Part shown: positions 9,589 through 43,443 of the stretch, piece after piece | How the letters are laid out: each line of letters starts with the position of its first letter | Position numbering within the stretch: the first letter of the stretch is position 1 | IMG/VR virus record: IMGVR_UViG_3300021256_000013 | Coordinates: 1,183-65,182 of that record | Direction: 5' to 3' (one strand) | Source: a virus | Lineage: Duplodnaviria; Caudoviricetes | Length of the DNA: 64,000 nt | Program-made: the position numbers and the translations under genes | Notes under the pieces: model-generated | Seen by the model: the letters and a program-made list of their open reading frames with translations, nothing else | Databases searched by the model: none | Told to the model about the DNA's origin: nothing

Positions 9589-10289
9589 CTCTCATAAACA
9601 ATCTCAAGCGGCTCAATCACATTTGGCAATGTCATGCCCATATGCATTCCATATAACTCAATGAAGCACCACAGCTGAAATTCCGTATATCCGTTTTCAT
9701 CTTCTCTCGGGAACCTTGGTTTGCATATCTCTCTTCCTGCGATCTGGTTTGTCCTGTCGTATTGGTGGTAATAGATTTCCTTGCCCCAGTCGGTCAGTTT
9801 AACCTTTATCAGTTCGTTGAGATTAATTCGGATAGGTTCTGGCTGTGCGGATGGCAAATGCTCTATGTCCGTTACATTAATAGTCTCCTCGACAACTTCA
9901 TATGTGCGGAGACTTCGCACTTTATTTCTCGGTAGCGCAAGCACCATTTTTCTGCTGATTAAATCGCACGAGTGCGTTTCCGTGCATTTTTCGGGCTGCG
10001 CGGTAAACACCTTTTTGCATTTGTCCATCTGGTCGCAATCTATCATTCCGCAGGCATTACATATTTTGTAATTTGCCGCCTGACGGCTGATTAACTCTCC
10101 AAAATTGTTGTCGAGTTCTGACGAGTTGTTGGAGACTTTCTGTGCCTTCTCCTGCGCTTCCAGTGCGTTGATTGCCATTTCTATAGCTTCTACGCCACTA
10201 TAGTCTGACCCTCGTGCCACCCTGAGATTTTCGAGTTCATAGTGCAAGCAGTCTAACATATCCTCCCTTGTCATCCCTCGCCCTCCCAA
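9585..10289 (-). CDS. Hypothetical phage protein
   Basis: Long ORF coupled to its neighbours in the early operon. Confidence 0.6.
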   Translation of the reverse strand: MGGRGMTREDMLDCLHYELENLRVARGSDYSGVEAIEMAINALEAQEKAQKVSNNSSELDNNFGELISRQAANYKICNACGMIDCDQMDKCKKVFTAQPEKCTETHSCDLISRKMVLALPRNKVRSLRTYEVVEETINVTDIEHLPSAQPEPIRINLNELIKVKLTDWGKEIYYHQYDRTNQIAGREICKPRFPREDENGYTEFQLWCFIELYGMHMGMTLPNVIEPLEIVYER

Positions 10290-14230: not shown

Positions 14231-14762
14231 CCTCCCATCGCGATATCCACTTCGCCACTTCAGGCTCAACATATTTGTGGAAATATTCAGCCCATCTTTT
14301 CTGCCACGGCGTATATGATTTCCTGATGCATTCCCAGGCATCGCCGTAATCGAATTCCGTATCGTGGAAGACTCTGTCTATATCGAAGACGGAGGAACAA
14401 TAACTCAGCTCATCAAGGAAGTTCCGGCAGTCTTCTTTATCCGATTCGTTTTCCCATTCATCGATATCGCTGAAATAATCGTTTATATCTTCCACGATGC
14501 TGTCGGCGTCATATTCCTTTTGATCGTGACAGCACTTTTCCATCACATAGCTGTCGCCGACAGATGACATTAGCTTCAGGAACCGTTTCCCATTTTCCGG
14601 CCATCGATGAGCATAATGCCCAATGTCAGAATCGCTCAGCAGCTGGCCGTGCTCCGGATCCAGATAGACGCGCATCCATAAGCAAGCGCCGGCATCATCG
14701 CCTTTCTCCGGCAGAACATCTATGACAAGTATTCCGTCATGGTTTTTTGATGATACTTTCAT
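14211..14762 (-). CDS. Hypothetical protein
   Basis: 183-aa coupled ORF. Confidence 0.6.
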   Translation of the reverse strand: MKVSSKNHDGILVIDVLPEKGDDAGACLWMRVYLDPEHGQLLSDSDIGHYAHRWPENGKRFLKLMSSVGDSYVMEKCCHDQKEYDADSIVEDINDYFSDIDEWENESDKEDCRNFLDELSYCSSVFDIDRVFHDTEFDYGDAWECIRKSYTPWQKRWAEYFHKYVEPEVAKWISRWEDDADEV

Positions 14763-15058
14763 GCCTTGACCTCCTCATCTATGATGAATGCATCGGCGCA
14801 GAGCAGATCCCTAATGACGCCGATCAGGATATAGGTCCATGTTTTTCCCGTATCTGTCCTTTCCGTGACGAAGTACGGCCTCAGGTCCTTGAAGTATCCG
14901 TAATCGATCATGCGGCTCATGTGCCATTTCTGCGTATCGACATCCTTCTGTGCCATGAGATAGTCATATTCGAATCGGCTGAGATGCACTGGTTTTGTGA
15001 TCGGGATCTTCGTCACGTCTCCGTGGAAAAAGATCTTCGCATAATATCCTTCTTTCAT
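14759..15058 (-). CDS. Hypothetical protein
   Basis: Coupled ORF with RBS. Confidence 0.55.
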   Translation of the reverse strand: MKEGYYAKIFFHGDVTKIPITKPVHLSRFEYDYLMAQKDVDTQKWHMSRMIDYGYFKDLRPYFVTERTDTGKTWTYILIGVIRDLLCADAFIIDEEVKA

Positions 15059-33435: not shown

Positions 33436-33644
33436 TACCTTTTTGATACCTGAATTTTTCAAGAATGTATGGAATGAAAGGAAAGTGAAAAATCAAAGCC
33501 AGTAAATACGCAGAGGGGATCTGATCATTACGACCAGAACCCCTTTTGATACTCGACGACGAACTCGCTCCATATTTCCGGAAACCCTTGATTTTACTGC
33601 ATTTGCGATAGGTTAAAAGTTCTCTTTGATACCTTTTTGATACC
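33423..33644. other. Putative attP with integrase arm-type sites
   Basis: TGATACC at 33423, 33433, 33444, 33627 and 33638. The identical 18-mer TGATACCTTTTTGATACC at 33433 and 33627 brackets a non-coding interval right after int. Confidence 0.72.
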
Positions 33645-33693
33645 TTTTCTTCAAAAAAGCACCTTTTGGGGGACTGTTTTTATCCAAGTGAGG

Positions 33694-33909
33694 TTAAACA
33701 GTTTTATCATCCGGATGATACTCCAGGAGATCTCCGGGTTCACAGTTCAGGAACCGACAGAGAGCGTCCAGCGTCCTCAGGTCTATCGACTTAGCCGTGT
33801 TATTCCAAAGCGCGGCGATCGTTGGTCGGGTGCGTCCGGTTGCATCGATCAGCTGCTGTTTGTTCACGCGTCTGTCCCCTGCCATTCTGGATAACTTACA
33901 CTCAATCAT
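33694..33909 (-). CDS. Cro/C1-type HTH (HTH_26/YozG-like) regulator
   Basis: AKSIDLRTLDALCRFLNCEPGDLLEY. Confidence 0.85.
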   Translation of the reverse strand: MIECKLSRMAGDRRVNKQQLIDATGRTRPTIAALWNNTAKSIDLRTLDALCRFLNCEPGDLLEYHPDDKTV

Positions 33910-34141
33910 GATTACCTACTTTCTCGAACCTGTCAACACCAGGTATCAGGTTCAACCCTCGTCCATTTTCCCACTTTACCATAATGTGGCCAGCATCATC
34001 TACATTCTCGACTTCTCCAATCGTTCCCGGCTCAATGGGCCTCGGATCGTTCGGCATCTCGATCAGCCTGACTTTGGTACCTTCAGTGTACTCATCTCGC
34101 AGATGCAAGATGTACGATGTTCCAGGGAATCTGATTATCAT
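33902..34141 (-). CDS. DUF4314 domain protein
   Basis: GTKVRLIEMPNDPRPIEPGTIGEVENVDDAGHIMVKWENGRGLNLIPGVDRF. Confidence 0.85.
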   Translation of the reverse strand: MIIRFPGTSYILHLRDEYTEGTKVRLIEMPNDPRPIEPGTIGEVENVDDAGHIMVKWENGRGLNLIPGVDRFEKVGNHD

Positions 34142-34142
34142 A

Positions 34143-34325
34143 TCACTGCACCTCCTGTTTTGATCTTCGGACGATCTCATCTGTGATTTTAAGGAACCGT
34201 TCCATGAACCAGGGATATATAGCTTCCTTTCTGTCCATAAACTCCCTGATCGCACCGGCGCCGAATTCGTAACTGGCCCGGAGTTCTGCCATAGTTGAAG
34301 TATGAACGTCCTTCATATTATCCAT
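34143..34325 (-). CDS. Hypothetical protein
   Basis: 60-aa coupled ORF with RBS. Confidence 0.5.
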   Translation of the reverse strand: MDNMKDVHTSTMAELRASYEFGAGAIREFMDRKEAIYPWFMERFLKITDEIVRRSKQEVQ

Positions 34326-34329
34326 TGCT

Positions 34330-34548
34330 TCACCCCCAGATCGATTTCTTGATGACTTCGTTGTTGCTGTACAGCGGGCCTGAACCTGTCCATGAATATT
34401 GGCCATCAGGCCCACCAATGGCGTCAACGATCTTGTGGGTAGCTTCGTCAACGTCTGCAGCCCAAACCTGCAGCCTGATCTTTTCTCCTGTTTCCTTGTG
34501 CATCATTCCGACCGAGAAGAGTTGTACAGTCATTGTCATTGATACCAT
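34330..34548 (-). CDS. Hypothetical protein
   Basis: First ORF after the leftward promoter, RBS GAAAGGA. Confidence 0.6.
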   Translation of the reverse strand: MVSMTMTVQLFSVGMMHKETGEKIRLQVWAADVDEATHKIVDAIGGPDGQYSWTGSGPLYSNNEVIKKSIWG

Positions 34549-34596
34549 CCTTTCTGCCTCTTGCCCTGAGGCTGGGTGCTATTGTCCGTCAGGATC

Positions 34597-34706
34597 ATCC
34601 TACCACGATTTGAGAAGCGTGTCTATTATTTAAGAAAAAATATTTTCTAAAAAAGATAAAATATTTTTCAATTTGTGGTTGACAAGAGATGCTCTGGTGG
34701 TATCAT
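34597..34706. promoter_or_regulatory. Divergent promoter pair of the accessory module
   Basis: Minus TAGACA-N17-TAGGAT (34625-34597) and plus TTGACA-N16-TATCAT (34679-34706), both with extended TG. Two AAAATATTTT palindromes lie between them. Confidence 0.65.
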
Positions 34707-34794
34707 GACACTATCAACGGTACACTTGCTCAAACAACTATACAACATCTGGTATTGACGGATACCAACCACTTCACAGAAAGGAATTAAGAAA

Positions 34795-35715
34795 ATGTCA
34801 GAACTGATCAAAAAGCAGAGCTTCGGAGTTGAGATTGAGACCTACGGCATCAGCAGAGAGAAGGCAGCAAAGATCATTGCCAACCATTTCGGAACAGTGA
34901 ACACCATTAAGCACAATCGTTACAGTTATGATCGCTGGGAGTGCAAGGATAACAAGGGCAGGACATGGACAGCCATGAGCGACTGTTCCATCCAGGATCC
35001 GACCAGAATTAGCTGTGTGAATGGCAAGGTTGGATGCGAGATTGTTACCCCGCTCCTTCAGTATGAAGATATCGAGACTCTGCAGGAGATCATCCGGGAG
35101 CTCCGGGCAGGCGGTGCAAAAGCCAACAGCTCCTGCGGGATCCATGTCCATGTGGATGCTGCCATGCAGGACGCCAAGTCGCTCCGCAGACTGGTGAAAT
35201 TCTTCTTCTCACGTCAGGATCTTATCTACGATGCACTTCAGATCGGTGACAGAAAAGACCGCTGGTGCAAGCCAATCACCGAGAGTTTCATGACTGTCCT
35301 CCGCAAAGACAGAAACATCAGCCTCAGCAGCCTGGAGAATGAGTGGTACGGAAGGGCAAACGACGGTGCAGGATATGTAGACCATTCCCATTACAATCAC
35401 ACCCGCTATCACGCCCTTAACCTTCACAGTTACTTCACCGGCAAGGGGATTGAGTACAGGCTCTTCAATGGAACAACACACGCCGGCAAGATCAAAGCAT
35501 ACATTCAGTTCTGCCTCGCCCTGAGCGCTTGGGCAATCGAAGCGGATGAGTCTATCCGGTTCAATAGAAAAGACGGCCTCACCATGAAGCAGAAAGAGGA
35601 TCTGTGGTCATCGATCCTGCGCAACCGCCTCGGCCTTGTCGGCAAAGAGTTCGCAACATGCAGACAGTGGATGCTGGCCGGATATCATCAGGAATCCGGA
35701 CAGGTAGCAGCTTAA
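34795..35715 (+). CDS. Amidoligase_2 (COOH-NH2 ligase) family protein
   Basis: FGVEIE, DCSI, EIVTP, SCGIHVHV, YHALNL, IEYRLFNGT. Confidence 0.9.
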   Translation: MSELIKKQSFGVEIETYGISREKAAKIIANHFGTVNTIKHNRYSYDRWECKDNKGRTWTAMSDCSIQDPTRISCVNGKVGCEIVTPLLQYEDIETLQEIIRELRAGGAKANSSCGIHVHVDAAMQDAKSLRRLVKFFFSRQDLIYDALQIGDRKDRWCKPITESFMTVLRKDRNISLSSLENEWYGRANDGAGYVDHSHYNHTRYHALNLHSYFTGKGIEYRLFNGTTHAGKIKAYIQFCLALSAWAIEADESIRFNRKDGLTMKQKEDLWSSILRNRLGLVGKEFATCRQWMLAGYHQESGQVAA

Positions 35716-35763
35716 CACCATAATGGCTGACCTATCGGCCTGACGGGGAGAAAGGAATCGGCA

Positions 35764-35970
35764 ATGAATAAAGTTATGGAGCTTCACAAACAGGTAATGA
35801 TGGCAGCTATGGACCAGACTATTACTGATGCTGAGTATTATAAGATCCTTGAGTCGTGCCTGGATGAAATGGAGAAAATCGGGATATCGGACGCAGATAT
35901 GGAAAATATAGAAGCTGACGTACTGACGACCATGCTTATGATGGCCGGCCCGATAAAGGCAGTAGGTTGA
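35764..35970 (+). CDS. Small acidic hypothetical protein
   Basis: RBS plus ORF in the amidoligase operon. Confidence 0.55.
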   Translation: MNKVMELHKQVMMAAMDQTITDAEYYKILESCLDEMEKIGISDADMENIEADVLTTMLMMAGPIKAVG

Positions 35971-35985
35971 AAATGGGGAATCGAG

Positions 35986-36183
35986 ATGAAAGATTATAAT
36001 ATTTATGAAACAGTGTATCCCGCAGTCGGTGAACCGTTCGTGGAGTTTGTCGGTAGAGTGGAAGCCAGGACGGAAGGATCAGCCCTCCGGAAGGCTGTGA
36101 AGCATTTTAAGGTTCATGATGGCGGCATTCCAGTAAGGTACAGAAGGCCGGAGAACTTTTCTGCGAAGGAAAGATGGAGGTGA
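35986..36183 (+). CDS. Hypothetical protein
   Basis: ORF in the amidoligase operon. Confidence 0.55.
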   Translation: MKDYNIYETVYPAVGEPFVEFVGRVEARTEGSALRKAVKHFKVHDGGIPVRYRRPENFSAKERWR

Positions 36184-36187
36184 AACG

Positions 36188-36670
36188 ATGAAGCGTACAT
36201 ATTATGTTGCCTATGGGAGCAATCTTAATATCGCTCAGATGAGGTTTCGCTGCAAAGGTGCGACGCCTGTCGGTGTTGGGTATCTGAAAGACTGGGAGCT
36301 GTTCTATGCCGGATCCTTCAGCGGGAATTATGCCACGATCCGTGAGAAAAAGGGCGGTATCGTTCCGGTCGGAGTTTGGCTGATATCAGAAGAGAACGAG
36401 AAAGCGCTCGATCGCTATGAGGGATGGCCAAGGTTCTATTCAAAGCAGGAGATAGTGGTCAACATGGTGACCGGGCATGTCGGAAAGAAGATAACCGGAA
36501 TGGTGTACATCATGAACACACATGCAAAGGAAGGGCAACCTTCACCATCTTATATTGCTACCTGCAGATATGGATACAGGGATTTTGGAATTGCAGAGAG
36601 ATATCTGGATGAGTCGCTGATCCGCGCCGGGATCGAAGATCCAGATTCCGATATATGGAATCAGTGGTGA
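36188..36670 (+). CDS. Gamma-glutamylcyclotransferase (AIG2-like) family protein
   Basis: YVAYGSNLNIAQMRFRC...LDRYEG...PSPSYIATCRYGY. Confidence 0.9.
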   Translation: MKRTYYVAYGSNLNIAQMRFRCKGATPVGVGYLKDWELFYAGSFSGNYATIREKKGGIVPVGVWLISEENEKALDRYEGWPRFYSKQEIVVNMVTGHVGKKITGMVYIMNTHAKEGQPSPSYIATCRYGYRDFGIAERYLDESLIRAGIEDPDSDIWNQW

Positions 36671-36790
36671 GCACTTTTCTGGTGGTTGCGTACAAATAAT
36701 CCGTTATTTGTACAAAAAATCCGTTGATTGGGCAAAAAACGTTGATAATGGGCATTTTCAAGCCCGGATAATATAGCACTTGCTATACAC

Positions 36791-36828
36791 AGAAAAAGGA
36801 TGCAGTTTGCCGTCTGCATCCTTTTTCT
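36791..36828. terminator. Bidirectional intrinsic terminator
   Basis: AGAAAAAGGATGCAG-N8-CTGCATCCTTTTTCT between convergent genes. Confidence 0.85.
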
Positions 36829-36831
36829 TGT

Positions 36832-37077
36832 TTACTGCTTGGGGTTGTTTTGCCGAGGAACGTCGTTCGATCTGGTCTGACACTTGTACACGATAAGGTC
36901 TCCGGGCTGACAGTTGAACACCTCACACAAGGCTTCCAATTCGTCAAGCTTTACTGACTTAGCCAGCGAGTGGCACAGAGACATTATCCGGTTCTCATTG
37001 ATTTTGGTCCTTTGTCCAAGCTCCTTTTTCGTCCAGTCTTTGGCCTTCCTCATGTCGTTAATATGAAGTTCGATCAT
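36832..37077 (-). CDS. Cro/C1-type HTH (HTH_26) regulator
   Basis: AKSVKLDELEALCEVFNCQPGDLIVY, paralogue of 33694-33909. Confidence 0.85.
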   Translation of the reverse strand: MIELHINDMRKAKDWTKKELGQRTKINENRIMSLCHSLAKSVKLDELEALCEVFNCQPGDLIVYKCQTRSNDVPRQNNPKQ

Positions 37078-37145
37078 TGCTTACAACTCCTTCCCTTGTA
37101 ATATAGTGTTGTGGGAAGGGGAATGCCAGATATATCTACCTTTCA

Positions 37146-37178
37146 GGGATTTTATCTACTTTTTCGTGATAAAATCCC
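37146..37178. promoter_or_regulatory. Palindromic operator upstream of the HTH gene
   Basis: GGGATTTTATC-N11-GATAAAATCCC perfect inverted repeat. Confidence 0.65.
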
Positions 37179-37239
37179 TATTTTTATGATCGAACTGTTG
37201 ATAGTTGTGGTACCTGATAAGGAGTGCAGTATTTAGTTA

Positions 37240-38661
37240 TTATACATCGTATTCTTTGATGATCGCATCAAATCCCATATAACGGAGAGAATCCACCTTT
37301 GCTTCGGCGTTAGCCTTGATGCTATAGGCTCCGCACTGGACTCGGTAGAAGCCTTCCTGCAGATCCGTAATGAAGCAATCAGTTCCGGTTGCGGAGATCT
37401 GCCTGAGCTTCATCTCTGCATTCTTCCGATTTTTGTACGCTCCAACCTGTACTCGGTACAGTTTTCCGGACGGAGCTGGCTCCGGAGCCGGCGTCTCACC
37501 TCCGAGCGCGGCAGTTACCTTCTTGGCCAGATCATCCATACGGGACATAAGCCAGTTGCCCGGGCAGGCCTTCGCCGCAAACCAGCGGTGGACGGTCAGG
37601 ATCATCTCATCCGCTTTCGGCTTGTAAGACAGGGTGTATTCCTTCTGACCGAACCAAATCAGTTTTTTCTTTCCATTCCTGCGACAGATGTCCGTGCACA
37701 GTTCGATCAGGCGCTTATAGACCACATCCTTGAATGCATAAGGATCAGCTTTGTCAGACGCACATTCGATCGTGACTGCCCTCTGGTCATTGGCAGAACT
37801 GGAAGAGCACCAGCTGCGGACGTCCTCCGGGACACACAGCATGACCCTGCCATCTACTCCAATGCCATAGTTGCAGCTGGCCTGGGCAGAGGAATGATCG
37901 AAGCATTCTCCGATCGTCTCCACAGACAGCTGGCCTACGACACAGTGTGGCGTAATCCTGTCGATCTTCATGGTTCGCTTTCCGCTGTTACACGGAGACA
38001 GCTTTGTATAGGAAACAAGTGGGCTATTCACTGACGACGCTCCTTCCTCCTTCTTTGCTCCTGAAGGCCAGTAATCAGATGGCGTGACCTTGCTAATTTC
38101 GTCATATTTGGTCAGGCCGTGTTTCTCGATGATTTTCATGATCCCGGAGGAATAAGTCGTCCCTGTGGCATATCCGAGGCTGTGGACGGTACTGATCAGG
38201 GACTTGTAGTCGTGAAGGTCCTTGATCTTCGAATAATATTTTGGATTGCCGATCGAATACCCGCCCCATCGCATGAAGCACAGGTAATCCACAAACGACT
38301 GCTCTATGTCATCGTAAATCCGGAAGTCATCATAGATCGTGACAGGAATCCCCCCATAGACTTCGGGAGTCTTCTTATTGATCCATTTTCCCGGCCACAC
38401 CCCGAGTCCAATATCCGTCCAGCTTTTGTTAAGGAGATCCCTCTTAATTCCGACCATGTTGTTATAGGTAACAAGGGCTTCCACACCGGGATTATCCCAA
38501 TATGACCTAATGCCATATCCGTTTTCCTTTGCAGCCTGCGCGATAAGAACAGAAGGCAAATAAAAAGCCTGGCCAAGCTCTTTCTCGAAGCGCTTGCAGG
38601 CTCTTTGTGCTGCCGGGTAAACCGCTGTGATAAATTCCAGCTCTGACGTGCATACCTTCAT
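37240..38661 (-). CDS. Endolysin: glucosaminidase + Amidase_2 + SPOR
   Basis: SVLIAQAAKENGYG...NNMVGIK, ITPHCVVGQ...ASCNYGIG...AVTIECAS...TVHRWFAAKACPG, LYRVQVGAYKNRKNAE. Confidence 0.92.
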   Translation of the reverse strand: MKVCTSELEFITAVYPAAQRACKRFEKELGQAFYLPSVLIAQAAKENGYGIRSYWDNPGVEALVTYNNMVGIKRDLLNKSWTDIGLGVWPGKWINKKTPEVYGGIPVTIYDDFRIYDDIEQSFVDYLCFMRWGGYSIGNPKYYSKIKDLHDYKSLISTVHSLGYATGTTYSSGIMKIIEKHGLTKYDEISKVTPSDYWPSGAKKEEGASSVNSPLVSYTKLSPCNSGKRTMKIDRITPHCVVGQLSVETIGECFDHSSAQASCNYGIGVDGRVMLCVPEDVRSWCSSSSANDQRAVTIECASDKADPYAFKDVVYKRLIELCTDICRRNGKKKLIWFGQKEYTLSYKPKADEMILTVHRWFAAKACPGNWLMSRMDDLAKKVTAALGGETPAPEPAPSGKLYRVQVGAYKNRKNAEMKLRQISATGTDCFITDLQEGFYRVQCGAYSIKANAEAKVDSLRYMGFDAIIKEYDV

Positions 38662-38662
38662 A

Positions 38663-39418
38663 TCAGACCTCCTTTACGAAAGCGTCGATTCCCTTCGCTT
38701 TCAGCTGGGCAGCTTTTCTCTCGGCGTTCGTCTTCCCGGAATAAAGGCCGACTTGGCATTTATAAAGGTTTTCTTCCTGTATCATCTTCACCGGGAAGCC
38801 CTTGCTCTTGATCAGCGCTTCATGTTCGCGGTATTTGGTGATATCAGAATAAGCCCCTGCCTGCACACGGTAGTGCGCTCTGTACTTATCCTTGAAGCGC
38901 AGAATAAAGTAAACCTTTGTGTTCTTCGCAGACAGACTGCCGATGAATTTGTTTATCTTCGCGCCTTCCCCGCTGTGCGGTGTTGCATAAGCGTGCCCGG
39001 AATCGAAAGACTTTTCACCACCGTAGTAGGCGTTTGTATGGTTCATGCCTGAATATCCAAGAAGGATATCGCCGTCGCAAAGCTGCATATGATCATACAT
39101 GTACTTCGGCGTTTTTCCTCCGGTGCTGATGATGTCGAAGTACTTTTCTACATCCTTCTTAGCATGATCATTCAGCCAGACAATCTTCTGCATTCCACCG
39201 TACCATGACGTACATTTCACGCCGATTGCCTTCAGCGCCCACTGCGGACCATCAACGCAGTTGATCTTATATTTCCCAGCTTTTCGGGCTGCTTCAAATC
39301 CGTTTGCCTTCTTCCTGCTTGTATTGCAATACGTCCACTGGTGACCAGCCTTATTATCGGCCTTCATTGTGGTGTTCATATATTTCAGGTATTCCAGGAA
39401 CTTTTCGTTCAGTTTCAT
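38663..39418 (-). CDS. Second putative cell-wall hydrolase (Cys/His peptidase-like domain + SPOR repeats)
   Basis: INCVDGPQWAL...GDILLGY...HTNAY, YRVQAGAY / YKCQVGLYSGKTNAE. Confidence 0.7.
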   Translation of the reverse strand: MKLNEKFLEYLKYMNTTMKADNKAGHQWTYCNTSRKKANGFEAARKAGKYKINCVDGPQWALKAIGVKCTSWYGGMQKIVWLNDHAKKDVEKYFDIISTGGKTPKYMYDHMQLCDGDILLGYSGMNHTNAYYGGEKSFDSGHAYATPHSGEGAKINKFIGSLSAKNTKVYFILRFKDKYRAHYRVQAGAYSDITKYREHEALIKSKGFPVKMIQEENLYKCQVGLYSGKTNAERKAAQLKAKGIDAFVKEV

Positions 39419-39448
39419 GTGTCATTCCTCCCTGTAAATATGATTGTT

Positions 39449-39486
39449 AAAATCAAAAATCCTGCGATGAGGATCCACCGCAGGAT
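39449..39486 (-). terminator. Intrinsic terminator between holin and lysins
   Basis: ATCCTGCG-N12-CGCAGGAT followed by TTTTGATTTT on the minus strand. Confidence 0.6.
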
Positions 39487-39502
39487 AATCCGCATTATTT
39501 CG

Positions 39503-39787
39503 TCAGACATCTTCCTCTTCGTCTTCTTCGTCCGGCCAGATCTTTATGTCATCATCGTCATCTTCTCCGACCGTTTCCATTTCGTACTGCACCCGATTGT
39601 ATTGTGCAGTGGAGATCCCCAGGAGTGCGCCCAAAAGCGTACAGATGACCGTCGTGGTCTTGGCAACCTGATCGGCATATGGCCATCCCCAAATAGCTGC
39701 CAGACCGACATAAGCTGTTGCCAACGCGGGAAGGACTATCATCGTGATCCATTTCAAAACGTCATAAACCTTAGAATTTAACTGCAT
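39503..39787 (-). CDS. Holin (Dp-1 type)
   Basis: LNSKVYDVLKWITMIVLPALAT...CTLLGALLGISTAQYN, two TM segments. Confidence 0.88.
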   Translation of the reverse strand: MQLNSKVYDVLKWITMIVLPALATAYVGLAAIWGWPYADQVAKTTTVICTLLGALLGISTAQYNRVQYEMETVGEDDDDDIKIWPDEEDEEEDV

Positions 39788-39799
39788 TTGAAAACCTCC

Positions 39800-40231
39800 T
39801 TAATAAGACCAGTCTCGTTTTTCAAGTCTCTCATTGTATCCATGTTTGATATGGGATACGGTAGCGGTTGTTTGGTTGTTACGGAATTTTGGATGCGCCT
39901 CGCAGTAGGATTCGTAGGAGTCAATGTCGGACATCGCCTGATCCCAACTATCTTTACTGTGACGTTGCTCCGCTTGCAGTTCGTCCTCAAAACGAAGGAT
40001 CCGGACACGGCACGCCACGGCATTGTAGCTGTCTGCCTTTGCGTCTACCGTGTCGATCTTCTGATCTAAAGAGTCAAACCGCACGGACATATCATCTGAT
40101 AGGTGCCGGATGGAGTCTGTAACACCCTTTAGCCTGTCATGTTTTTTATCATGCCGGTTTATCAAAAACTGGATGAATGCGAATAGACCACCTCCCACCA
40201 AGATGCCCGCAATAGATGCAATAAAGTCCAT
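39800..40231 (-). CDS. Lysis-module membrane protein
   Basis: N-terminal TM, RVRILRFEDEL...IDSYESYCEAHPKFRNN. Confidence 0.7.
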   Translation of the reverse strand: MDFIASIAGILVGGGLFAFIQFLINRHDKKHDRLKGVTDSIRHLSDDMSVRFDSLDQKIDTVDAKADSYNAVACRVRILRFEDELQAEQRHSKDSWDQAMSDIDSYESYCEAHPKFRNNQTTATVSHIKHGYNERLEKRDWSY

Positions 40232-40254
40232 TGGCCTTTAACCTCCATACCAAT

Positions 40255-40278
40255 AAAAAAGATCAGCTTTCGCTGATC
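40255..40278 (-). terminator. Terminator after the DGR cassette
   Basis: GATCAGC-GAAA-GCTGATC-TTTTTT on the minus strand. Confidence 0.7.
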
Positions 40279-40286
40279 TGATCGTG

Positions 40287-40451
40287 TTACTGTTCCTGTT
40301 CCATTTTCATGATGTTTCGCAGGTGAGCCAACTCAGTCGCCTGCCTTTGGATGATTTCGCCCAGGTGGTGAATAATTTCATCCTGTTTTTCTGTCATTTC
40401 TATGTACAATTCGAGCGTCTCTAACAGCTCGTCATCCGATAAGCGACTCAT
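40287..40451 (-). CDS. 54-aa coiled-coil protein downstream of the RT, below the ORF track cutoff
   Basis: MSRLSDDELLETLELYIEMTEKQDEIIHHLGEIIQRQATELAHLRNIMKMEQEQ, overlaps the RT stop. Confidence 0.6.
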   Translation of the reverse strand: MSRLSDDELLETLELYIEMTEKQDEIIHHLGEIIQRQATELAHLRNIMKMEQEQ

Positions 40452-41538
40452 CCTGTTCTCCGTTGTTATGTGTCAAAACGAATTCGCTGAATATCTTTTT
40501 CCTAAGTTCCTCGCTGTCAGTCTTATCCATCATGGCGATGTACGCCTGGACAGTTTCATTTGCCTCAAAAAAGGTCATTTCCCATCTGGAGTATAGATCC
40601 TGTACCTGCTTCAATCGACGCTTCATACGAAGCGATGTACTTTTCCTGAGCCTCATGGAGTGCGGTTTGATAAAATATCCGACAAATTCAATTCCACACT
40701 CTATAGGCCTGATTGCAGTTTTGTGATTGAAATTCAATAAAAGGCGATTTTCAAGGAAGTCATTCAGCTTGTAATATGTCTCATGCAGCTTTTCCTTACT
40801 GTCCATAAGCACGACAATATCATCCATACATCGGATGAAGAAGTGAAGCTGCAGCTCCCGCTTTGCGTACTGATCCAGCTCATTCAGGTAAACATTACCA
40901 CTCATGTGCGACATGCCGCCGCCAATCGCAACCCCCTTATTCCAGAGCAATTCCCTTTCGTCTATGGTCATGGGGTTAGATGCACCGCGCGGAAGGCCAA
41001 AAGGCTTTGACGCGAACCTGGTGTAATGGTCCAGCAGATCAAGCGTCCTCCGATCGGCAATCTTATGTTCATAGATCCTCATCATGACATTCTGATCGAT
41101 ACGATAGAAGAACTTCTCACAATCCGCTTTCAGATAATACCATCGCTTTCCGGAATCAGCGCAGTAGTTGATCCAAGAAGCCAGACGCTGGCCGGCAGCA
41201 AGGTTCCCCCTTCCGGGGATACATGCATATGAATCTTCAATCCACCCTTTTGCGAGACGCTCATTCAGGGCATTATAGGCTGACCGCTGTATTACTTTGG
41301 TCGTGTAGTCACTGCAGGTAATCTTCCTGAGCTTCGGCTCATATACCGGAAACGTGCGGTATATATCCGGTGGATAGGTTCTGCTATAAAGGCAGTCCGA
41401 TATCCGATGAAGGTTATCCTCCAGGTTATCCCAGAACATCAGCTCCTCTGGAAGAAACCGCCTGCCAAGAGATGAATCATGTTCAGCCAAACGGAGACTT
41501 TCAAAAGAAGCTATTTCATCGAAGACATTTTTAATCAC
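40432..41538 (-). CDS. DGR reverse transcriptase
   Basis: YEPKLRKI, SYACIPGRG, LKADCEKFF, R-CMDD catalytic box, IEFVGY, next to TR and avd. Confidence 0.92.
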   Translation of the reverse strand: MIKNVFDEIASFESLRLAEHDSSLGRRFLPEELMFWDNLEDNLHRISDCLYSRTYPPDIYRTFPVYEPKLRKITCSDYTTKVIQRSAYNALNERLAKGWIEDSYACIPGRGNLAAGQRLASWINYCADSGKRWYYLKADCEKFFYRIDQNVMMRIYEHKIADRRTLDLLDHYTRFASKPFGLPRGASNPMTIDERELLWNKGVAIGGGMSHMSGNVYLNELDQYAKRELQLHFFIRCMDDIVVLMDSKEKLHETYYKLNDFLENRLLLNFNHKTAIRPIECGIEFVGYFIKPHSMRLRKSTSLRMKRRLKQVQDLYSRWEMTFFEANETVQAYIAMMDKTDSEELRKKIFSEFVLTHNNGEQDESLIG

Positions 41539-41726
41539 GAATGCACTATCCCTTCCGGAGCATTGCAGCGTTCTCGATTAGCGTAAGATACTTGCGGCAT
41601 TCCACATTCGCTTATGCACAAAGGCAATTTTTTGGCAAGAGCCACGGAGACGTGATCCTTTTGCCACCTTGTACTGGATGCAGCCCCTTAGGGATGCAAC
41701 TTCTGACGTGTTACATTTGTGGCAAG

Positions 41727-41842
41727 AGCGGCGCGGAAGCCGATGTTGTCGTTGGCGTTGGAGCGCGCGTTGTTGAGGTTCACGTAGAAGACACCGGCGT
41801 TGCCCGTGTTGTTCCAGTTCCCGCCGCAGATCGCCATCCGCT
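41727..41842 (-). repeat. DGR template repeat (TR)
   Basis: 116-bp copy of the VR with 10 in-frame AAC codons. Confidence 0.95.
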
Positions 41843-41846
41843 AGTA

Positions 41847-42218
41847 TCACGTTCCCGTCTTTCCTTTTCGAGTTTCATCGGCATAGGCAGCTTTCAGCAT
41901 ACCGCCAACCTGCTTGCCGATTTCGCCTATCATGCCAGACAGGATATCGTATTGCTTTGGAGCGATATATCGCAGATCGTAAGCCAATCGTACATATTTC
42001 TTCAGTACATTTACGGACACATCCAATTCACGTAGAACCGTTTTCTTCTGGGTATGACGTTTCAACTCTTCGAGGTTCCATACAACATCGTGCATGCACT
42101 TCTTTATGTCAGTAACCAGACCATATTTTTCTGAATGCGGGAACTGTTTCAGAGGTGTTTGATATGCATAAATCATCATATCGTGTACCGATCGTTCAAC
42201 TGGCAGTTCCTTTTCCAT
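41847..42218 (-). CDS. avd: DGR accessory variability determinant
   Basis: LKQFPHSEKYGLVTDIK...LRELDVSVNVLKKYVRLAYDLRYI...IGEIGKQVGG. Confidence 0.9.
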   Translation of the reverse strand: MEKELPVERSVHDMMIYAYQTPLKQFPHSEKYGLVTDIKKCMHDVVWNLEELKRHTQKKTVLRELDVSVNVLKKYVRLAYDLRYIAPKQYDILSGMIGEIGKQVGGMLKAAYADETRKGKTGT

Positions 42219-42284
42219 TGCTCACGACATCCTTTCTTACCGCACGCTGAGACACATCGTAGCACACATTACCAAATCTATCTT

Positions 42285-42310
42285 TTTTATCTACTTTTCA
42301 TAGATAAAAT
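42285..42310. promoter_or_regulatory. Palindromic operator upstream of avd
   Basis: TTTTATC-N11-GATAAAA, 22/26 identical to the site at 37150-37175. Confidence 0.6.
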
Positions 42311-42342
42311 CTATCTTTTCATGATTTTTAGCCTGAAAAAAA

Positions 42343-42372
42343 TTGTAATCACCGCTATCGCGGTGATTACAA
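42343..42372 (-). other. DGR target-recognition hairpin/cruciform
   Basis: Perfect 13-bp inverted repeat TTGTAATCACCGC/GCGGTGATTACAA with a 4-nt GATA (GRNA-type) loop on the coding strand, 15 bp after the target stop. Confidence 0.85.
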
Positions 42373-42387
42373 AAAACAAAATTCAAA

Positions 42388-43443
42388 TTACAAGTCGCAA
42401 TAAGCGGCGCGGAAGCCGATGCCGCCGCTGGCGGTGGAGCGCGCGTGGTAGAGGTCCACGCAGAAGACACCGGCGTTGCCCGAGTCGTTCCAGTACCCGC
42501 CGCAGATGGCCATCCGCTCACCGCCGAGCTGTGCGTATCTATAATCACCGCCATAAACGTCGCCAGACTCTTCCGGATACAGAATCAGGGCTTTGATAAG
42601 CTCCGGAGCAGTGAGACCAGAGGCAAGTGCCAGATCCTTAAAGCCTGTTCCTCTTCCCGTGGAGCCATCGTCTGTAACAGTACCGCTCGTAAGAGTGAGC
42701 TTATTGTTAAGGAAATCATACTTCAATGATCCATCGGCACCAGGTTCGATCAGGGATCCGTCCGCAGAGATCGCCTTCCAGGCAGTGGAATTGGCTCCGA
42801 GAGATACCTCCGGATCCATGGCATTTGCGTACGGAATGATATTGATCTCGCCTGCATTCAGCCTCAGGCCGGCGTTCCATTCATATACATTACCATTCAA
42901 ATCAGCTATGCCATTCTTCGTGTGATCATGGTACCAGGTCTTTGGCCCAGAACCTGTCAGGCAGCGAGATACTCTGTTCTCGCTATCGTAAGCTGCGGGC
43001 GTTCCTTTCTCAAAGGAATACGCATGATCTTTCCCATAGTTGTTGTTTCCACGGGGCATCGTTCCATTTTTCTTTGTCCACAGAGCCACTGCCGCCCAGA
43101 GAGAAAACGGAGTCAATGACCAGCCTTTCCCTTTGTTACGGCAGGCTGCGAGAGCATTATCATGGTTGATTGACACTTTCGGGTCCCTGAGCGGAAGAGA
43201 GTAACCTCTGTCGTTCATCACGATATTCTGGAACTTCGAGAAGTACATGACATCTTTCTCAACGGAATTGACCTGGAAGGCCGGGTGTGTGATGGCAGAG
43301 CCACCGGATACGATGTCGGAGTTCTGGAGCTTCGTGATCGGTACCATGATTGACGGGTAACCAATGTTATCAAAAAGGACGGTGTTCTCACCGCCAGAAA
43401 TAGCCTCAACGGCCAGCTTCAGATCATCTAAATTCAGTGCCAT
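42388..43443 (-). CDS. DGR target protein (C-type lectin / FGE-sulfatase fold)
   Basis: IADLNGNVYEW, C-terminal CGGYWNDSGNAGVF...GFRAA carrying the VR. Confidence 0.92.
   Translation of the reverse strand: MALNLDDLKLAVEAISGGENTVLFDNIGYPSIMVPITKLQNSDIVSGGSAITHPAFQVNSVEKDVMYFSKFQNIVMNDRGYSLPLRDPKVSINHDNALAACRNKGKGWSLTPFSLWAAVALWTKKNGTMPRGNNNYGKDHAYSFEKGTPAAYDSENRVSRCLTGSGPKTWYHDHTKNGIADLNGNVYEWNAGLRLNAGEINIIPYANAMDPEVSLGANSTAWKAISADGSLIEPGADGSLKYDFLNNKLTLTSGTVTDDGSTGRGTGFKDLALASGLTAPELIKALILYPEESGDVYGGDYRYAQLGGERMAICGGYWNDSGNAGVFCVDLYHARSTASGGIGFRAAYCDL
42403..42518 (-). repeat. DGR variable repeat (VR)
   Basis: 13 mismatches to TR, 12 of them at TR adenines. Confidence 0.95.

Follow-up and report, generated by a model that had tools for sequence, protein, structure and literature searches.

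Operator arrays shared by a small helix-turn-helix gene and the avd-TR-RT unit of a phage diversity-generating retroelement: a candidate switch for mutagenic retrohoming

Diversity-generating retroelements (DGRs) are the only natural systems known by which bacteria and phages hypermutate particular proteins in a targeted way. In the Bordetella phage BPP-1 (mtd-avd-TR-brt), the target gene with its variable repeat (VR) and GRNA hairpin is followed by avd, the template repeat (TR) and the reverse transcriptase (RT) gene, and we know of no dedicated regulator described for this element. FP_Lagaffe, the nearest cultured relative of the phage considered here, has a Mtd-like target of 44% identity; its avd comes directly after the hairpin, with a gap of 71 bp and only a ribosome-binding site (RBS), and there is neither a separate operator or promoter nor an HTH_26 gene after the lysin. 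In a 2024 preprint on Bacteroides DGRs, retrohoming was regulated at least partly through avd/TR/rt transcription and its activity tracked the levels of these transcripts, and the controlling signals and mechanisms were said to "await discovery" (10.1101/2024.11.15.621889). In the present study, we analysed a window of 64,000 nt, positions 1,183-65,182 of the IMG/VR record IMGVR_UViG_3300021256_000013 (Duplodnaviria; Caudoviricetes), which is the complete 65,182-bp genome of a gut/rumen phage with direct terminal repeats. The DGR in this window has the same order as in BPP-1, and the region ahead of its avd shares an array of DNA sites with a small helix-turn-helix (HTH) gene, named here HTH81, that lies about 5 kb away. 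As judged from the sequence, these shared sites are probably a dedicated transcriptional switch for hypermutation (avd-TR-RT).

A sequence-only reading of this DNA had drawn attention to two 26-mers, at 37150-37175 and 42285-42310, and both were found there, identical at 22 of 26 positions. It had described them as a TTTTATC-N11-GATAAAA dyad with extra ATCTA half-sites beside it. The dyad is present at both sites, but it is better seen as part of a row of tandem 17-mers, in which it corresponds to the middle unit with flanking T3/A3 spacers; the extra half-sites exist, but they are actually the neighbouring 17-mer units of each array. The array unit is ATC-N11-GAT with a separation of 3 nt, which gives a period of 20 bp, and the best unit is a 5-N7-5 pseudo-palindrome, ATCTA-N7-TAGAT. 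Array A (37134-37190, minus strand), upstream of HTH81, consists of three 17-mers at 37134-37150, 37154-37170 and 37174-37190, which read on the sense strand, from distal to proximal (37190-37134), ATCATAAAAATAGGGAT, ATCACGAAAAAGTAGAT and ATCCCTGAAAGGTAGAT; the perfect 12-bp arms at this site are a local elaboration of the array. Array B (42277-42325, minus strand), ahead of avd, has 17-mers at 42289-42305 and 42309-42325 and a half unit at 42277-42285, and in the same sense (42325-42277) reads ATCATGAAAAGATAGAT, ATCTATGAAAAGTAGAT and the half unit AAGATAGAT. The likeness of the two sites spans about 41 nt on the sense strand, beyond the 26 nt first noted.

These arrays were found nowhere else in the genome. 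When up to two mismatches were allowed, TTTTATC-N11-GATAAAA matched the window only at sites A and B, with 0.13 matches expected by chance, and none of 100 shuffled sequences held two or more; with up to one mismatch, there was no third site in the whole 65,182-bp record. A position weight matrix scan, which had been proposed as a check, scored both sites at 42.7, and the runner-up (18.2) was the adjoining unit of A. The operator is shared by the HTH81 and avd promoters with no further copy in the genome, which is the pattern of a regulon of two.

All genes concerned are on the minus strand. In order of transcription, the Mtd-like target gene (42388-43443; phrog_2889, PHROG match 4.6e-122) contains the VR (42403-42518) and is followed by a GRNA-loop hairpin at 42343-42372, which was found by the terminator scan to have 13 pairs, a GATA loop and a following T7 run, and is terminator-like. 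After it come site B and the extended -10 TGCTACGAT of the predicted avd-TR-RT promoter, which lies where the sequence-only reading had placed it (42264-42256, minus strand), and then avd (41847-42218; Pfam bAvd, 5.2e-20), the TR (41727-41842, 116 nt, 89% identity to the VR), the RT gene (40432-41538; Pfam RVT_1, 2.8e-13) and a terminator-like hairpin 3' of it (40260-40279), which is the likely end of the unit. A 143-aa open reading frame (ORF), a holin, a SPOR protein and the endolysin (37240-38661) precede site A and HTH81, and a bidirectional terminator at 36791-36828, with a 15-bp stem and then a T-run, closes the HTH81 unit. The promoter of HTH81 was predicted by consensus scan at 37100-37129 (CTGGCA, 18-nt spacer, TATATT). 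The element has every usual part of a DGR, namely RT, Avd, a TR/VR pair with adenine-specific differences and a GRNA-loop hairpin 3' of the VR, and hairpins of this type 3' of the target were present in all relatives examined. Since 12 of the 13 differences among the 116 TR/VR positions fall at TR adenines, the DGR looks active. The VR hairpin would insulate avd from the late transcript, and the earlier proposal that avd is controlled independently of the late operon fits this terminator-like hairpin and the conserved extended -10. Several terminator-like hairpins, those at 39459-39486 and 40260-40279 of the window included, thus stand within the expected late tail-lysis operon, namely after the VR, the RT gene and the holin, as if late transcription needed antitermination or additional promoters.

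The HTH gene was called correctly at 36832-37077 and encodes a protein of 81 aa. HTH81 is a Cro/C1-type HTH_26 protein (PF13443, 4.5e-16; 59.3 bits against a cut-off of 22, residues 5-66 covered). Its AlphaFold2 model (pLDDT 86.8) has helices at 6-12, 17-24, 28-35 and 44-54, of which 28-35 is the recognition helix, and terminal beta-strands at 2-4 and 62-64. In Foldseek, the model matched SaPI2 Stl, CylR2, SinR, P22 c2 and 434 Cro with a probability of 1.00, and also VanU and the controller proteins of restriction-modification (R-M) systems; the search of the PDB by sequence gave no match. The lineage is rare, with two other clusters at E<=1e-10 among 1.84 billion representative proteins. Apart from the contig of one close relative (L003), searches with HTH81 in IMG/VR, the JGI metagenomes and the GTDB genomes yielded nothing but distant HTH_26 proteins (25-39% identity) in unrelated contexts, and a word-index protein search returned only relatives of 84-95% identity, all on short contigs. 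From adjacency and co-variation, HTH81 would bind the pseudo-palindromic operators.

The sole close relative found, L003 (IMGVR_UViG_3300031853_001916, about 88% nucleotide identity), keeps both arrays. The half-sites are invariant and all three changes fall in the inner spacers: array A has invariant arms and one spacer change, and array B is changed in the spacer only. The hexamers of the HTH81 promoter are likewise kept in L003, and the spacer between them varies. An exact scan of IMG/VR for GATTTTATC-N9-TAGATAAAA gave 10 stretches, among which the L003 contig was the only related one; eight of them (L017 included) have no common genes and look like chance. Megablast against cultured phages gave no match, and no prophage was found by an RT profile search of the GTDB representative genomes. 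The nearest HTH81 cluster, P0008 (47% identity over the matched stretch), occurs in the phage L026, which is syntenic with the window (target 60%, Avd 74% and RT 69% identity) and has its HTH gene directly after the endolysin. Upstream of avd and of the HTH gene, L026 has in each case two units of TATCGGAnnnnRATATTA with the 20-bp period; no copy of this motif was found in the rest of the 39-kb record, and none with the reversed motif as a control.

To follow the arrangement further, 80 related DGR loci were fetched with a target-protein profile and their ORFs were screened with HTH and anchor profiles. An HTH_26 gene follows right after the endolysin in 16 of the 80. In all 16, an operator array lies directly upstream of this first HTH gene, and the spacer between target and avd (113-169 bp) is made of the hairpin, an AT-rich repeat or operator block, a variable stretch and TGnTAnnAT, the extended -10 equivalent that is conserved in all HTH-positive classes. 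The co-conservation of HTH gene and operator that the sequence-only reading had proposed to look for was thus found in 16 of 16 HTH-positive loci. A further 31 loci are HTH-less although at least 5.3 kb can be seen downstream, and this operator block is missing from all of them. Among the loci with a visible post-lysin region, there was none in which the site is kept without the HTH gene, the case named at the outset as speaking against the idea. In most HTH-less loci avd stands directly after the hairpin with a ribosome-binding site only (gaps 18-72 bp), and one HTH-less sub-clade has another, unrelated type of spacer. Eight short contigs with an operator block (L038, L058, L063, L088, L093, L100, L105 and L107) end before the HTH position; L033 has the syntenic HTH gene on a contig that ends before avd, and L035 and L036 end before the post-lysin region. 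In a quick IQ-TREE tree of the RT, a single clade with 100% support unites the HTH-positive loci with the operator-bearing short contigs, and no HTH-less locus falls inside it. Within this clade, the arrangement is kept without exception through deep divergence.

The HTH-positive loci fall into three diverged classes, each with its own 5-N7-5 operator common to the HTH and avd promoters: the window with its close relative L003 (class I), L026 (class II) and the remaining HTH-positive loci (class III). In class III, the recognition helix is PNTI(N/S)ELY and the operator is ATAAC-N7-G(A/C/T)TAT, a perfect palindrome in L077. This 17-mer occurs upstream of both avd and the HTH gene in five of the seven loci scanned (L052, L065, L077, L084 and L091), with a single stray match elsewhere in these five (in L084), and at just one of the two places in L109 and L115. 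The recognition helices of classes II (PNLVMELY) and III (PNTINELY) are similar and the half-site GATAT is common to both; class I differs in helix (ENRIMSLC) and in half-site (TAGAT). When all avd upstream regions were compared with all HTH upstream regions by Smith-Waterman alignment, the matrix was block-diagonal by HTH class, with scores of 18-27.5 within class I, 15.5 within class II and 9-18 within class III, 6-11.5 between classes, and a mean of about 7.5 with maxima of 11-14 for shuffled sequences. Regulator and operators are therefore co-inherited and co-varying across the relatives, within what is a single clade.

The geometry is held as well, the two promoters of a class having their operators at matching distances from the -10. 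The transcription start was taken 7 nt after the -10 hexamer, with the TATATT and TATACT boxes placed by hand. On this scale, the operator centres of classes I and II are at -48 and -68 for avd and at about -50 and -70 for the HTH gene (plus -90 in class I), and those of class III are at -58 for both. The stretch from operator to -10 is variable in sequence and held in length, and no conserved -35 was found at the avd promoters among the HTH-positive classes, which favours a face-specific interaction with RNA polymerase. In class III, a second inverted copy overlaps the -10 and RBS region of the HTH gene itself and would suit autorepression.

Our reading is that HTH81 is an autoregulated controller of avd-TR-RT acting through the shared operators, which we hold to be rather likely. 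In this mechanism, a Cro/Xre-type dimer of HTH81 would bind the 5-N7-5, 17-bp operators, one per 20 bp, in arrays placed just upstream of its own promoter and of the dedicated extended -10 promoter of avd-TR-RT. The VR hairpin with its T-run would separate this unit from the late tail transcript, so that the supply of Avd, TR RNA and RT, hence mutagenic retrohoming, would follow the state of HTH81 rather than only late transcription. The shared sites, the co-inheritance of the HTH gene, the co-variation by class and the fixed spacing to the -10 are established by the comparison of sequences; we infer that HTH81 rather than its paralog is the binder, and likewise the sign of regulation and the effect on retrohoming. 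Activation by HTH81 is favoured modestly, at slightly better than an even chance, because the operators stand upstream of the core promoter at conserved and helically phased positions and no -35 is conserved at avd. A further version is offered tentatively and appears doubtful to us. In it, this Clostridia-type gut/rumen clade would have a dedicated, self-reinforcing switch, in which a positively autoregulated HTH protein, expressed at the moron end of the prophage, switches on the insulated avd-TR-RT promoter. Whether or not late genes are expressed, lysogens or a subpopulation of cells could then run or silence tail-fibre diversification, and a sister clade would have reached the same layout independently.

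Several points weigh against control of avd-TR-RT by HTH81. The positions of promoters and transcription starts are consensus predictions only. Within-locus scores in the class III loci L052, L062 and L115 are no better than those of the best shuffles, and some class III pairs are individually not significant, since their range of 9-18 meets shuffle maxima of 11-14. All HTH-positive loci lie in one RT clade, so that the pattern of presence and absence counts as a single evolutionary event. Wherever the contig reaches, the HTH gene is followed by convergent gamma-glutamylcyclotransferase (GGCT) and amidoligase genes and then by a second HTH_26 gene (33694-36670 in the window), and given this perfect co-occurrence the HTH gene could belong to the amidoligase-GGCT module. 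Finally, the second HTH_26 paralog also differs among the three classes, so that co-variation alone cannot single out HTH81. Overall, control by HTH81 is supported by the comparative evidence, short of proof.

The last point bears on the alternative that the arrays are real and control HTH81 and avd-TR-RT, but are bound by another protein: HTH71 or its equivalents in the other classes, CI, Cro or HTH116. The phage encodes at least five HTH proteins, these four and HTH81 among them. HTH71 (33694-33909, minus strand) is a paralogous HTH_26 protein with 34% identity to HTH81 and a different recognition helix. Its operon has a different dyad of its own, AAAAATATTTT-N11-AAAATATTTTT (34636-34668), in the promoter region from which the HTH71 operon and the amidoligase gene diverge; this perfect 11-bp inverted repeat with an 11-nt spacer is kept in L003 and is probably the operator of HTH71. 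The second HTH gene of L026 has its own, separate repeats too, and in class III the motif is absent upstream of the second HTH gene, whereas in every HTH-positive locus it is the first HTH gene that has the array immediately upstream. The CI/Cro pair is at about 30.0-31.0 kb, separate from HTH81, and HTH116 is a 116-aa HTH protein ahead of the integrase gene; scans of the window and of the whole record found no HTH81-type sites near the CI/Cro region (about 30-31 kb), and the CI, Cro and HTH116 proteins of L003 have 96-100% identity to those of the window. We consider another binder unlikely, and HTH81 remains the protein we prefer. Host-factor boxes, namely those of DnaA, Fur, IHF and LexA, were set aside because they fit the sites poorly and the motif changes with the phage class.

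A duplicated promoter, perhaps maintained by gene conversion, would explain the likeness with no regulator at all, the AT-rich repeats then acting like UP elements or as curved DNA. The two regions are alike over about 41 nt including parts that are not palindromic, they have the same orientation and the same distance to the -10, and A-tract-rich repeats of 20 bp could bend DNA. Such an origin does not account well for copies that stay matched in three diverged classes while the flanks and inner spacers diverge, nor for changes that avoid the 5-bp half-sites. A length of 26-41 bp also gives recombination little to act on, the units of classes II and III show no particular A-tract character, and the HTH gene always accompanies the trait. 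A duplication without a regulator therefore appears to us still less likely than another binder. That the inverted repeats are RNA hairpins on read-through late transcripts (processing, stability or attenuation) is very improbable and was rejected, for although site A folds with -17.9 kcal/mol (z -7.8) and the avd site of L026 with -20 kcal/mol, folding is not conserved across the classes (site B -7.8 kcal/mol, the L026 HTH site z -1.5, the class III avd site 0 kcal/mol with no fold), and the conserved feature is a sequence word with a 20-bp period upstream of predicted -10 boxes.

Some features around these genes may be recorded beside the candidate switch. The GGCT/amidoligase moron module is co-inherited with the candidate DGR switch. 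A tandem repeat with a 20-bp period, ACAAAAAATCCGTTAATTGG, is present in 2.4 copies (36692-36739) in the stretch from the GGCT stop codon to the bidirectional terminator. A non-coding gap of about 260 bp (33436-33693) separates the end of the integrase gene from the convergent HTH71 gene and is likely the attP region; the HTH, amidoligase and DGR end would then lie at one border of the prophage. In addition, a sister RT clade without HTH_26 has target-avd spacers of 103-136 bp with GGACAGTCC repeats, found in L078, L080, L082, L083, L097 and L112, with variants in L108 and L067. The only other place with GGACAGTCC in L078 and L112 is the post-lysin intergenic region some 5 kb downstream, where it precedes a 214-aa ORF whose match to Rha is below threshold; the two regions of L078 are 9600-9680 and 14760-14890. 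The sister clade may have an independent and analogous pairing of regulator and operator at the avd promoter, probably with a different regulator.

A dedicated transcriptional switch for hypermutation has not previously been described. A literature search on repressor or operator control of mutagenic retrohoming listed no paper with the term 'mutagenic retrohoming', and one on YozG/HTH_26 returned unrelated papers only. If it is borne out, the pair of HTH81 and its operator would be the first to be defined for any phage DGR, and diversification tools based on DGRs could be controlled through it. The locus is a compact and testable candidate, with an 81-aa protein, a 17-bp operator and a promoter of about 170 bp, and nature provides three specificity variants together with a contrast in sister phages, where avd is simply transcribed along with the target gene.

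Among known regulators, the CI/Cro immunity switches resemble the HTH81 system in the Xre-type HTH, the multiple operators at phage promoters and the autoregulation. HTH81, however, lies next to moron genes where the lysis cassette ends, it has no divergent partner, and the CI/Cro region holds none of its sites. CylR2 of Enterococcus faecalis (1utx, 2xiu) is a dimeric HTH protein of 66 aa that, like the HTH81 model, has beta-strands at both termini, and by target coverage it is among the best structural matches (TM-score about 0.72 for the query and 0.87 for the target); the identity is only about 15-17%, and CylR2 and CylR1 repress the cytolysin operon, with no link to a retroelement. The R-M controller proteins C.AhdI and C.BclI (Foldseek matches 1y7y and 2b5a) are small stand-alone HTH proteins of about 80 aa with the same fold as HTH81. 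As proposed here for HTH81, such proteins have adjoining tandem operators upstream of their own promoter and control a second set of genes too; at low occupancy they act as activators, at high occupancy as repressors. Unlike them, HTH81 is not accompanied by R-M genes, its second target is 5 kb away and not in the same operon, and its candidate operators are 17-mers with a 20-bp period in arrays of two to three. The regulatory parts are thus conventional, an Xre-type autoregulator with tandem operators, and what is new is what they would regulate, namely a DGR mutagenesis cassette that has an insulated promoter to itself.

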